Shown piece by piece: positions 1 through 4,455 of a stretch of DNA of 4,455 nt. The DNA lies in IMG/VR virus record IMGVR_UViG_2706794673_000001; one strand, given 5' to 3'. The stretch's first letter is position 1; each line of letters opens with the position of its first letter. Below the pieces are notes generated by a model. The model made no database searches. It saw only the letters and a program-made list of their open reading frames with translations, and was not told the DNA's origin. Position numbers and translations under genes: made by a program. This stretch comes from a virus. Lineage: Duplodnaviria; Heunggongvirae; Uroviricota; Caudoviricetes.

Positions 1-363
1 GAGCAGCGCGACAAAAACGCAAGAGAACTGAAGCTGGCGAACGCAACCATTACTGACATGCAGCAGAGACAGCGTGATGTTAATGCACTCGATGCTAAAT
101 ACACGAAGGAGTTAGCTGATGCGAAAGCTGAAAATGAAACTCTGCGCGCTGATGTTGCCGCTGGTCGTCGTCGGTTGCACATCAAAGCAGTCTGTCAGTC
201 AGTGCGTGAAGCCACCACCGCCTCCGGCGTGGATAATGCAACCAGCCCCCGACTGGCAGACACCGCTGAACGGGATTATTTCACCCTCAGAGAGCGGCTG
301 ATGACGATGCAGATGCAACTGGAAGGGGCACAGGAGTATATCCGCACTCAGTGCATTAAGTAG
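1..363 (+). CDS. Rz: Rz i-spanin (inner-membrane spanin subunit), 5'-truncated by the window edge
   Basis: Frame 1 is open from base 1 to TAG at 361-363. The translation ([120 protein letters not shown]) is recognisably close to phage lambda Rz as I recall it, including the [28 protein letters not shown] block. It also contains an embedded +1-frame lipoprotein gene, the hallmark of Rz/Rz1. Confidence 0.9.
119..301 (+). CDS. Rz1: Rz1 o-spanin (outer-membrane lipoprotein spanin subunit), embedded in the +1 frame of Rz
   Basis: 60-aa [63 protein letters not shown]. It has a signal peptide ending in a lipobox (LVVVGC, Cys20), a PPPPP stretch, and is near-identical to lambda Rz1 as I recall it. 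AAGGAG Shine-Dalgarno at 105-110, 8 nt upstream of ATG 119. An alternative start at ATG 134 is possible. Confidence 0.85.
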
Positions 364-405: not shown

Positions 406-705
406 ATGCCATCACTAATCCCACGTGCCTGCCGTAAGCGTGGATGTGCAGGTACAACCACAGACAGTTCGGGTTACTGCGATAAACATCGCGGTGAAGG
501 CTGGGTGCAGCACCAGCGCGGACTGAGCCGCCACCAGCGTGGCTATGGCTCAAAATGGACGGTGATTCGTGCCCGTATTCTGAAGCGCGATAAAGGTCTG
601 TGTCAGTTGTGTCTGCGTGTCGGTGTGGTGAGCGAGGCGAAAACCGTCGACCACATCATCCCGAAAGCGCATGGCGGAACAGACGCAGACAGCAACCTGC
701 AGAGT
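406..705 (+). CDS. HNH endonuclease, terminase-associated (HK97 gp74-like); 3' end hidden in the N-masked block
   Basis: ATG 406 preceded by GAGG (397-400) with 5-nt spacing. The translation contains the HNH core ...CQLCLRVGVVSEAKTVDHIIPKAHGGTDADSNLQS (CxxC zinc-ligand pair, catalytic His in DHIIP, N in SNL) plus a Cys/His-rich N-terminus (CRKRGCAGTTTDSSGYCDKH). The ORF runs into the N block at 706, so the true stop is unknown. Only the visible part is given as coordinates. Confidence 0.85.
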
Positions 706-991
706 NNNNNNNNNNNNNNNNNNNNNNNNNNNNNNNNNNNNNNNNNNNNNNNNNNNNNNNNNNNNNNNNNNNNNNNNNNNNNNNNNNNNNNNNNNNNNNN
801 NNNNNNNNNNNNNNNNNNNNNNNNNNNNNNNNNNNNNNNNNNNNNNNNNNNNNNNNNNNNNNNNNNNNNNNNNNNNNNNNNNNNNNNNNNNNNNNNNNNN
901 NNNNNNNNNNNNNNNNNNNNNNNNNNNNNNNNNNNNNNNNNNNNNNNNNNNNNNNNNNNNNNNNNNNNNNNNNNNNNNNNNNNNNNNNNNN
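706..991. other. Masked / undetermined sequence (286 N)
   Basis: Continuous run of n characters. Content cannot be read. From the flanking genes it must contain the HNH 3' end and the TerS 5' end. Confidence 0.95.
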
Positions 992-1307
992 GCAACTGAC
1001 AACCAAAGAACTCTGCGGTCAGGGCCTGCTGTGCGTGACTGACCTGGCGGTACTTGAGCGGTGGTGCGTGGCCTATGAGTTCTGGCGACGTGCCGTGAAA
1101 AATATTGCCATACAGGGCAACACCATCACCGGTGCAATGGGCGGCAGGGTCAAAAATCCGGAGCTGACCGCCAAAAAAGAACAGGAGTCCGAGATGAGCA
1201 GCACGGGGGCAATGCTCGGACTCGACCCCAGCAGCCGCCAGCGTCTGATTGGCCTGGCGGGGCAGAAGAAAGCCACTAACCCGTTTCTGAAAATTATCGA
1301 ATCATGA
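992..1307 (+). CDS. Terminase small subunit (P27-family type), 5' end hidden in the N-masked block
   Basis: Frame-0 ORF is open from the N block to TGA at 1305-1307. The visible 105-aa C-terminal part ([104 protein letters not shown]) has the character of P27-family small terminases, e.g. the ...[10 protein letters not shown]... tail. Its stop overlaps the TerL start (ATGA). Confidence 0.8.
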
Positions 1308-3026
1308 GCCGGAAATCTTACCCCAACGTAAATGCTGCAAATCAGTATGCCCGGGATGTCGTGCGCGGAAAGATTGTTGCCTGCCAGTTTGTGATTCAGG
1401 CCTGCCAGCGCCATCTTGATGACCTGATGGCGGAAAAAAGTAAGTCGTTTCGTTACCGCTTCGACAAGGACCTGGCTGAACGGGCCGCGAAATTTATTCA
1501 GCTGTTGCCGCACACCAAGGGGGAGTGGGCATTCAAACGGATGCCCATCACGCTGGAGCCGTGGCAGCTATTTGTGATCTGCTGTGCGTTTGGCTGGGTC
1601 AATAAAGGCACCCGGTTGCGCCGCTTCCGGGAGGTGTACACCGAAATCCCCCGTAAGAACGGCAAATCAGCAATCTCTGCCGGTGTTGCCCTGTATTGTT
1701 TTGCCTGTGATAACGAGTTTGGCGCGGAAGTGTATTCCGGTGCCACGACAGAGAAACAGGCGTGGGAAGTCTTTCGCCCGGCGCGACTGATGTGTAAACG
1801 CACACCCATGCTGACGGAAGCGTTCGGGATTGAGGTTAACGCCTCAAACATGAACCGTCCGGAGGATGGCGCGCGGTTTGAACCGCTGATCGGCAACCCA
1901 GGTGATGGTTCATCACCCCACTGTGCCGTGGTTGATGAATATCACGAGCATGCCACCGATGCGCTTTATACCACAATGCTTACCGGGATGGGGGCGCGAC
2001 GTCAGCCACTGATGTGGGCCATCACCACCGCCGGGTACAACATTGAGGGGCCGTGCTACGACAAGCGGCGGGAAGTCATCGAGATGCTCAACGGCTCGGT
2101 GCCTAANNNNNNNNNNNNNNNNNNNNNNNNNNNNNNNNNNNNNNNNNNNNNNNNNNNNNNNNNNNNNNNNNNNNNNNNNNNNNNNNNNNNNNNNNNNNNN
2201 NNNNNNNNNNNNNNNNNNNNNNNNNNNNNNNNNNNNNNNNNNNNNNNNNNNNNNNNNNNNNNNNNNNNNNNNNNNNNNNNNNNNNNNNNNNNNNNNNNNN
2301 NNNNNNNNNNNNNNNNNNNNNNNNNNNNNNNNNNNNNNNNNNNNNNNNNNNNNNNNGCAGTTCGAGGGGCAGCCGTGCATTCTGGCCTTTGACCTGGCGC
2401 GTAAGCTGGATATGAACAGCATGGCGCGACTTTATACCCGCGAGATTGACGGTAAAACGCATTACTACAGTGTGGCCCCGCGTTTCTGGGTACCGTATGA
2501 CACGGTGTACAGCGTCGAGAAAAATGAAGATCGACGGACAGCCGAACGCTTTCAGAAATGGGTGGAAATGGGCGTTCTGACCGTTACCGATGGTGCGGAG
2601 GTGGATTATCGCTACATCCTCGAGGAGGCCAAAGCGGCGAACAAAATCAGCCCGGTCAGTGAGTCACCCATCGACCCCTTCGGGGCGACCGGGTTGTCAC
2701 ATGACCTTGCTGATGAAGACCTGAATCCCGTCACTATCGTCCAGAACTTCACCAATATGTCCGATCCGATGAAAGAGCTGGAAGCAGCGATTGAATCGGG
2801 ACGTTTTCATCATGACGGCAATCCCATCATGACCTGGTGTATCGGCAACGTGGTCGGCAAAAACATGCCGGGTAACGATGATGTGGTGAAACCCGTCAAA
2901 GAGCAGGCGGAAAACAAAATCGATGGTGCAGTTGCGCTGATTATGGCGGTTGGCAGAGCCATGCTGTACGAGAAAGAAGACACGCTGTCTGACCACATTG
3001 AGTCCTACGGGATCCGCTCGCTTTAA
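1304..3026 (+). CDS. Terminase large subunit (ATPase + nuclease), HK97-like; interior masked by N at 2107-2356
   Basis: N-terminal part (1304-2106, frame 2) carries Walker A PRKNGKS (1649-1669), Walker B AVVDEYHE and a TTAG coupling motif. C-terminal part (2357-3026, frame 0) carries RNase H-like nuclease motifs (ILAFDLA ... [13 protein letters not shown]) and ends IRSL-TAA at 3024-3026. Total span of about 574 codons fits a single uninterrupted TerL. The two visible parts are in different frames, and the 250-nt N block cannot reconcile them, so the mask length is probably not the true length. Confidence 0.9.
2107..2356. other. Masked / undetermined sequence (250 N) inside the terminase large subunit gene
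   Basis: Continuous run of n characters between the ATPase and nuclease domains of TerL. Confidence 0.95.
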
Positions 3027-3037
3027 CTGAGGTAATT

Positions 3038-3220
3038 ATGATCATGCTGATTCTCGCGCCTCTGGTGGGCGTGCTGGGTGCGCTTTTGCTGGCGTATGGT
3101 GCCTGGCTGATTTATCCCCCGGCGGGTTTTGTTGTTGCCGGGGCGCTGTGCCTGTTCTGGTCGTGGCTGGTGGCGCGATATCTCGACCGTACACGGCAGT
3201 CTGTCGGCGGAGGTAAATAG
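3038..3220 (+). CDS. Small hypothetical membrane protein (60 aa, two predicted transmembrane helices)
   Basis: ATG 3038 (second ATG at 3044) preceded by GAGG at 3029-3032 with 5-nt spacing, 11 nt after the TerL stop. Translation [60 protein letters not shown] has two hydrophobic segments separated by a PPAG turn and a basic C-tail. Its stop TAG (3218-3220) overlaps the portal GTG start by 1 nt. No similarity to a characterised family that I recognise. Confidence 0.55.
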
Positions 3221-4376
3221 TGTTCTTTTCGGGATTATTTCAACGAAAAAGCGATGTGCCGGTGACCACGCCAGCAGAACTGCTGATGCTATCGGGCTGT
3301 CATACGACACCTATACCGGAAAGCGGATCAGTAGCCAGCGGGCCATGCGCCTGACGGCGGTCTATTCTTGCGTCAGGGTGCTGGCAGAGTCTGTTGGTAT
3401 GCTGCCCTGCAGTCTCTACAAAATCAGCGGTACCCTGAAAACACGGGCGGTGGATGAACGACTGCATAAGTTGGTTTCGGCAAAACCTAATGGCTACATG
3501 ACACCGCAGGAATTCTGGGAGCTGGTTATTGTCTGCCTGTGTCTACGGGGGAATTTTTACGCCTACAAGGTAAAGGCACTGGGAGAAGTGGTGGAGCTTC
3601 TTCCGATAGATCCGGGCTGTGTGGAACCGAAGCTGAACAGCCAGTGGCAGCCGGTTTATCAGGTGACGTTTCCGGATGGTTCCGTGGATGTGTTGACCCA
3701 GAATGAAATCTGGCATGTGCGCACCCTGACGCTGGATGGACTTGTCGGGCTGAATCCCATTGCGTATGCGCGTGAGGCCATTTCACTGGCAGCGGCAACC
3801 GAGGAGCACGGTGCCAGGTTGTTTAGTAATGGTGCGGTGACATCCGGTGTGTTGCGTACGGAACAAAAGCTCACGCCGGATGCTTACGAGCGTCTGAAGA
3901 AAGATTTTGAGGAGTGTCACACGGGGCTTGGCAATGCTCACCGCCCGATGATTCTGGAAATGGGGCTGGACTGGAAGTCGATGGCGCTGAACGCCGAGGA
4001 CAGTCAGTTCCTGGAAACCCGCAAGTTTCAGCTGGAAGAAATCTGTCGTCTGTTCCGGGTGCCGTTGCACATGGTGCAGAACACCGATCGCGCCACCTTC
4101 AACAATATCGAAGAGCTGGGGCTGGGATTTATCAACTATTCACTGGTGCCGTATCTGACCCGCATCGAACAGCGGATCAACACCGGACTGGTACGAAAAA
4201 GTAAGCAGGGCGTTTATTACGCCAAATTTAACGCCGGGGCGTTACTGCGCGGGGATATGAAGTCCCGTTTTGAAGCCTACGCCACCGGGATCAACTGGGG
4301 AATTTACTCTTCCAATGACTGCCGCGACCTGGAAGATATGAATCCGCGTCCCGGTGGTGTAATGCCGATCAGTTAA
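3220..4376 (+). CDS. Portal protein, HK97 family; apparent frame disruption near 3305-3315 (possible pseudogene or sequence error)
   Basis: The body (frame 0, about 3300-4376: ...YTGKRISSQRAMRLTAVYSCVRVLAESVGMLPCSLY ... GINWGIYSSNDCRDLEDMNPRPGGVMPIS, stop TAA 4374-4376) is a typical HK97-type portal. Frame 0 has no ATG/GTG with an RBS after the previous gene; the ORF-track start at 3129 is a TTG buried in the small membrane ORF. A strong start exists in frame 1: GGAGG (3209-3213) then GTG 3220, giving MFFSGLFQRKSDVPVTTPAELLMLSGCHTT..., which stops at TGA 3352-3354. The frame-1 N-terminus and frame-0 body would join by a 1-nt change near 3308-3314. Confidence 0.8.
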
Positions 4377-4408
4377 GGATCAGTTGACCGATCCAGTGGC
4401 TGTGTAAG

Positions 4409-4443
4409 AATCCGGAAACGCTCACTTGTTTCCGGATTTTTTT
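4409..4443 (+). terminator. Rho-independent (intrinsic) terminator downstream of the portal gene
   Basis: Perfect inverted repeat: tccggaaac (4411-4419) pairs with gtttccgga (4428-4436), extendable by two A-T pairs (4409-4410 with 4437-4438). Loop is 8 nt (gctcactt), followed immediately by a run of 7 T (4437-4443). Orientation is + strand; on the - strand the hairpin is not followed by a U-tract. Confidence 0.7.
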
Positions 4444-4455
4444 ATGCACATTGGA

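Follow-up and report, generated by a model that had tools for sequence, protein, structure and literature searches.

The closest known counterparts of the locus analysed here are the cos sites of the Shigella flexneri serotype-converting phages SfI, SfII, SfV and SfIV. The 10-nt sequence TGCCCGCCCC is missing from the sequenced ends of SfI virion DNA in comparison with the SfI prophage, which led the authors of that study to conclude that it is the cohesive end (PMC3636060), and the same cos has been reported in SfI, SfII, SfV and SfIV (PMC3851460). The SfI record ends exactly with TGCCCGCCCC and begins with GTCGTTTTTTTATACCCGCG. The mapping of virion DNA ends to this site comes from SfI alone. 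Further, the record of the Stx2e phage phiP27 (AJ298298) annotates a 10-nt cos-site, CGCCCGCCCC, between its HNH gene (L34) and its TerS gene (L35), and its TerS is a member of the Pfam family that takes its name from P27. In HK97, the gene for the HNH protein gp74 lies at the right genome end, and those for TerS, TerL and the portal protein lie at the left end. PMC9410871 and PMC11331095 describe gp74 as stimulating the cleavage of cos by TerL, with 10-nt 3′ overhangs, and place the binding of HK97 TerS at +15 to +29 downstream of the cut. The cos of lambda (cosQ-cosN-cosB) is likewise cut in a site-specific, staggered manner at the junction of the lysis and terminase genes, with TerS binding on the terminase-gene side. 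Lambda differs in having no HNH partner, 12-nt 5′ overhangs, and unrelated Nu1/gpA terminase and cos sequences.

The window, meaning the whole 4,455-nt stretch of DNA that was analysed (IMG/VR record IMGVR_UViG_2706794673_000001, Caudoviricetes), carries the same junction of lysis and terminase genes, masked by a run of Ns. Very probably, what lies under this run is the point where the right and left arms of an SfV/SfI/phiP27-type, HK97-like cos phage meet; the phage persists as a prophage remnant in a chromosome of Shigella sonnei type.

Gene layout of the window

The window contains 3,919 readable bases, in segments of 705, 1115 and 2099 nt, which are separated by two uninterrupted N runs (Table 1). 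The gap between the HNH and TerS genes is real and is flanked by the readable part of HNH on one side and by the readable 3′ part of TerS on the other. The gene order read originally from the letters alone (Rz/Rz1 - HNH - TerS - TerL - portal) is borne out by Pfam scans, with a ymfR-like ORF as the one extra member, and its likeness to the HK97 arrangement holds as well. In particular, comparison with relatives confirms a gene order in which the HNH endonuclease gene immediately precedes the terminase genes and closes the late operon. The readable part of HNH includes C66xxC69, D82-H83 and N97, and the Rz1 ORF found here is present in an identical chromosomal locus (L021 3006-3188), where it matches PF06085 Rz1. 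The closest E. coli relative has an iss (increased serum survival) lipoprotein gene (L001 1889-2182) and about 500 nt more between Rz and HNH; the window is without this insert, with Rz ending at 363 and HNH starting at 406.

Table 1. Features of the window, with gene identities from Pfam scans of the readable flanks. Positions inside N run 1 are nominal and were counted from the edge given.
Feature	Position	Strand	Evidence and remarks
Rz (i-spanin) gene, 3′ part	1..363	+	Phage_lysis PF03245, E=7.5e-51
Rz1 (o-spanin) ORF, 60 aa	119..301	+	ORF list; embedded in Rz
HNH endonuclease gene, readable aa 1-100	406..705	+	PF01844, E=5e-9
N run 1	706..991	.	286 N; one invariant 351-nt sequence (L013 3593-3943) in 16 flank-matched loci
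HNH end, predicted (left-edge count)	706..756	+	last 16 codons (LCWPCHKAKTARERIR) and TGA; L013 3593-3643
HNH-TerS spacer with cos, nominal place	757..812	.	121 nt in relatives, not 56
TerS start, predicted (right-edge count)	813..991	+	ATG, codons 1-59 and two bases of W60; L013 3765-3943
TerS (P27 family), C-terminal 104 aa	992..1307	+	PF05119 Terminase_4, E=4.9e-19
TerL gene, split by N run 2	1304..3026	+	PF03354 and PF20441; ATPase and nuclease domains
N run 2	2107..2356		250 N; inside TerL
ymfR-like 60-aa ORF	3038..3220	+	between TerL and portal
Portal pseudogene	3220..4359	+	PF04860, E=1.8e-107 (match from about 3330); 1-nt deletion near 3282, 3′ end lost
IS4 element terminus	4360..4455	+	inside portal gene

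Identical genomes and the content of the masked block

Ten chromosomal loci (L013-L022) were reached through an exact match to the 60-aa ymfR product, and six IMG/VR contigs were found with a gapped pattern anchored in both flanks of N run 1. Five of the chromosomal loci (L013, L015, L016, L019 and L021) match every readable base of the window at 100%, without a mismatch or a gap (705/705, 1115/1115 and 2099/2099). The ten loci include CP022672 (L022), which is Shigella sonnei strain 866, as well as CP179990 and CP037997, which are cited in Shigella genome papers. None of the complete E. coli genomes contains the whole window; the best match has 78% coverage at 94% identity, with an identity of at most 93.5% in the portal part. 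A 20-mer beside the mask had a lone match among genome contigs, in a Hyphomicrobiales MAG (L012 3542-3561), which was rejected as unrelated; about one chance match is expected in 596 Gb.

N run 1 is replaced by the same 351-nt sequence in 10/10 chromosomal loci and 6/6 IMG/VR contigs, giving 16 loci with matching flanks, while N run 2 is replaced by the same 261 nt in all ten chromosomal loci, where TerL stays one 577-aa ORF. The 351 nt are made up of 51 nt that end HNH, a 121-nt spacer, and 179 nt that start TerS. The 51 nt complete a 116-aa HNH protein (L013) by supplying the second CxxC pair and the last catalytic histidine (H106); the full protein matches PF01844 (E=1.6e-16) and also phrog_144. 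The TerS start reads MAGTAGRSGRRPKP…, with a ribosome binding site (AGGAG) 8 nt upstream of the ATG, and the full TerS (L013) is a 164-aa protein that matches PF05119 (E=3.7e-20) and phrog_83, terminase small subunit (E=1.1e-58). Both lengths lie within the sizes guessed beforehand, which were 110-130 aa for HNH and 150-165 aa for TerS. The relatives have the two genes in different reading frames, separated by a stop codon and 121 nt. Two contrary outcomes were sought, a continuous HNH-TerS ORF and an unrelated inserted gene, and neither was seen in any relative.

Judged from these sequence matches, it is almost certain that the mask covers the invariant 351-nt sequence shared by the identical public genomes. 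Because the window's own bases are N and the run is 65 nt shorter than the DNA of the relatives, we infer this identity of content from the relatives rather than seeing it in the window. The original prediction had placed the HNH stop codon, cos and the TerS start all within the hidden block, and all three are present in the 351-nt sequence of the 16 relatives, at a place where the window itself has N. 

It is barely conceivable that the block holds other content, such as a fused HNH-TerS reading frame, an insertion of a gene or IS element, or another cos allele: a mosaic joint does fall here, with HNH phiP27-like (96.7% nucleotide identity) and TerS SfV-like (98.5%), and IS elements are plentiful in this genome, but 16/16 flank-matched loci have one and the same block, in which HNH and TerS are separate ORFs, the stop codon, 121 nt and frame change keep the two genes apart in the relatives, and 286 N, if even roughly sized, is too short for an IS element of at least 1.3 kb.

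The cos region between HNH and TerS

The spacer of the relatives has the order TAATTATTCTCACTTGTA-GGGAGGGGCGGGGCAAATCCCTG-TGACCTGACGTCTTCCGGAC-TGCCCGCCCC-ATCGTTTTTTTAT-ACCCGCGAAAAATGAAATTTAACC-AGGAGTGCCGCAT. Along it, a G-rich block (GGGAGGGGCGGGGCAAATCCCTG) is followed by 20 variable nt, the 10-nt cohesive end (TGCCCGCCCC) and a T7 tract, after which come the conserved block ACCCGCGAAAAATGAAATTTAACC and the AGGAG ribosome binding site. The GC-rich, cos-like site that was anticipated between the HNH stop and the TerS start was found in the relatives, and it includes TGCCCGCCCC. This 10-mer is present once in each of the 16 flank-matched loci, where the window's own bases are N; it is single copy in the 12.2-kb locus L013 (3705-3714) and does not occur in the readable window. 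The content of the block in the identical genomes, together with the identity of the cut-site 10-mer and the surrounding 73 nt to end-mapped phages, can be read directly from the sequences. In particular, SfV and SfIV match L013 3698-3770 at 100%, a stretch of 73 nt that begins slightly upstream of the cut and reaches the TerS start.

When ten HNH-TerS junctions are aligned, the records of SfI, HK97 and Edwardsiella phage EPP-1 all terminate in one column, and the annotated phiP27 cos-site is found at the aligned position. A cos site of the SfV/SfI/phiP27 type would be marked by a 10-nt cohesive end (T/C)GCCCGCCCC that separates the HNH gene from a P27-family TerS gene immediately downstream. 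Conservation from Shigella to Klebsiella and Edwardsiella, and more loosely to HK97, is seen for three elements. The first is the G-rich block, whose end, (T/G)(C/T)AAATC, lies about 40 nt before the cut. The second is the C-rich cohesive end; together with the G block it makes up a perfect inverted repeat of 8 nt (GGGGCGGG/CCCGCCCC) around a 33-nt loop. The third is the T-tract followed by the ACCCGCGAAAAATGAAATTTAACC block, which lies at +14 to +37 from the cut. The ACCCGCGAAAAATGAAATTTAACC block is kept where TerS is very similar (Klebsiella and EPP-1), and it differs in phiP27 and Salmonella phage F1055, where TerS is diverged as well. The TerS of EPP-1 (L028 48-653) is 201 aa long as a result of an exact tandem 37-aa duplication in its N-terminal region (ELAGNPGKRTLNKNEPVFTPIAGVEPPEWFSEDGLLL, twice).

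Compared with SfI, SfV, SfII and SfIV, the locus has the same cohesive end, the same HNH-cos-TerS order, and TerS and TerL of the same family, where the readable part of TerS has 97-98.5% nucleotide identity (98.5% to SfIV and SfII). It differs from their cos by a single T-to-G change in the G-rich block, and from SfV in its HNH gene and first 18 spacer nt, which are phiP27-like. The L34 HNH gene of phiP27 is 96.7% identical in nucleotides to the HNH gene of the window; however, the first base of the phiP27 10-mer is C rather than T, its TerS is clearly diverged, and its sequence downstream of the cut differs. HK97 shares the gene order, the alignment column of the genome end, the upstream G-rich block (...TCAAATC...) and the downstream T-tract. 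In contrast, its TerS is unrelated at the sequence level to the P27-family TerS found here, its cohesive end is a different one (CGCCGCCAAA), and its genome end lies 319 nt from the HNH stop, as compared with 71 nt here.

The joint between phiP27-like and SfV-like sequence can be followed within the cos region (L013 3644-3700): HNH and the first 18 spacer nt are phiP27-like, and the sequence is SfV-like from CTGTGACCTGACG onward. The crossover lies within the G-rich block GGGAGGGGCGGG.CAAATCCCTG, which both types share. The window flanks mirror this mosaic: HNH has 97% identity to an E. coli prophage of P27 type, and TerS with the 5′ part of TerL has 99.9% identity to one of SfV type.

A packaging mechanism can be proposed by homology to these phages. 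TerL and the adjacent HNH protein would nick either side of TGCCCGCCCC in a staggered manner, which would leave 10-nt cohesive ends, probably as 3′ overhangs like those of HK97, and a contribution of the HNH protein to cleavage would likewise be expected. Packaging would run rightward, with the terminase genes entering first. The full 577-aa TerL (L013) matches the HK97 TerL structure (PDB 6z6d, E=5.4e-26, residues 80-556), and the HNH protein matches the HNH protein of GVE2 (5h0m, E=1.1e-12) and HK97 gp74 (E=2e-10). TerS may bind just downstream of the cut, and the conserved block ACCCGCGAAAAATGAAATTTAACC, at +14 to +37, is its candidate site by analogy of position with HK97. HK97 gp1 was rejected as a homologue of TerS at the sequence level: phmmer gave no PDB match for TerS, BLASTP against gp1 gave E=6.9, and gp1 does not match PF05119. 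With no detectable similarity between TerS and gp1, the HK97 model of the TerS site applies here as an analogy of position only. Moreover, the candidate site overlaps the 5′ leader of TerS, and the leader alone could explain its conservation.

The spacer was also considered as a terminator or structured RNA, and this was rejected. A sequence scan of the spacer gave no promoter-like or terminator-like site, Rfam gave no match for it, its fold z-score is only -1.2, and the loop of its inverted repeat is 33 nt long. These negative results fit read-through of the late transcript across cos.

N-run lengths and the state of the prophage

According to the original prediction, the hidden features fit within a 286-nt block. 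The count of Ns stands, but the fit does not, as the DNA in every identical relative is 351 nt long. Overall, N run 1 is 65 nt shorter than the DNA of the relatives (286 vs 351) and N run 2 is 11 nt shorter (250 vs 261). As a result of the first mismatch, features inside N run 1 have no exact window coordinates. For example, TGCCCGCCCC would fall at 818-827 when counted from the left edge and at 753-762 when counted from the right edge, and an HNH end at 756 (left-edge) with a TerS start at 813 (right-edge) leaves too little room for the 121-nt spacer. Further, the two halves of TerL are in different reading frames if the 250 N are taken literally. The more economical reading is that the N runs do not keep the true lengths, being, for instance, scaffold gaps of estimated size; it is preferred since the alternative needs two deletions that lie exactly within both N stretches of an otherwise identical sequence. 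Scaffolded draft assemblies commonly carry N runs of estimated size. The N-run lengths in the window are thus unsuited to reading-frame or size arguments.

The alternative is that the lengths are true and that the source has only 286 nt here, with a deletion of about 65 nt that removed cos or trimmed the 3′ end of HNH or the 5′ end of TerS, and a frameshifting 11-nt deletion in TerL, as further decay of the prophage. Both length differences and the disagreement of the TerL frames on the two sides of N run 2 at literal length are consistent with it, the element is already decaying through the portal deletion and the IS4 insertion, and TerL gene calls are split in some S. sonnei assemblies. Nevertheless, it is quite unlikely, as it calls for two independent deletions, each exactly in an N stretch, while the 3,919 readable bases equal those of five public genomes, and as scaffolded drafts usually have gaps whose size is an estimate. 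Moreover, the IMG/VR viral contigs gave no match with the anchors 271-300 nt apart and six matches at 351. The same gapped pattern gave nothing at 271-300 or 335-364 in metagenome contigs, a collection without the locus and so uninformative on the spacing.

The reconstruction from identical genomes confidently fills the N stretch and places the S. sonnei remnant among the HK97-like, putatively HNH-assisted cos packagers. The cos group itself is already known from SfI/SfV/SfII/SfIV/phiP27, with an HK97-like organisation and a P27-family TerS, and the locus adds nothing new to it. The copy found here differs from those of the SfI/SfV group phages in that it sits in a truncated, non-inducible prophage. 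A functional cos prophage would have an intact portal gene and a downstream head module; here the portal gene is broken, and the identical genomes carry IS and host genes after IS4, without a head module. In particular, alignment to intact E. coli relatives places a 1-nt deletion in portal near 3282 (3275-3290; …GAACT-GCTG vs …GAGCTGGC), which breaks the ORF into one part at 3220-3354 and another, in a second frame, that extends to 4376. The IS4 terminus (TAATGCCGATCAGTTAAGG…) begins at 4360 inside portal, the last roughly 100 nt of the gene are lost, and the window ends inside IS4. With a broken portal gene and with IS4 cutting off the head module, the element cannot package itself, and its cos is a relic. 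Because the prophage is defective, the mapping of its ends by induction, which had been proposed earlier, is not feasible.

HNH, TerS and TerL are all still intact ORFs in the remnant of the identical genomes, and its cos is identical over 73 nt to that of SfV and SfIV. It is nonetheless very improbable that the remnant is not inert and that its relic cos is cut by a superinfecting or co-resident SfV/SfI-type phage or by its own terminase, or, alternatively, that the N lengths are literal and the source strain lost cos in a 65-nt deletion. If the relic cos were cut, the adjacent S. sonnei chromosome could be packaged in one direction, as a cos-driven kind of lateral transduction.

The sequence that follows IS4 differs among the ten chromosomal loci (L013-L022, 7400-12183), with an IS3-family element, bamE and recN in some and raiA, pheL, pheA, tyrA and aroF in others. 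This variable DNA downstream of IS4 suggests an IS-mediated rearrangement at the remnant.
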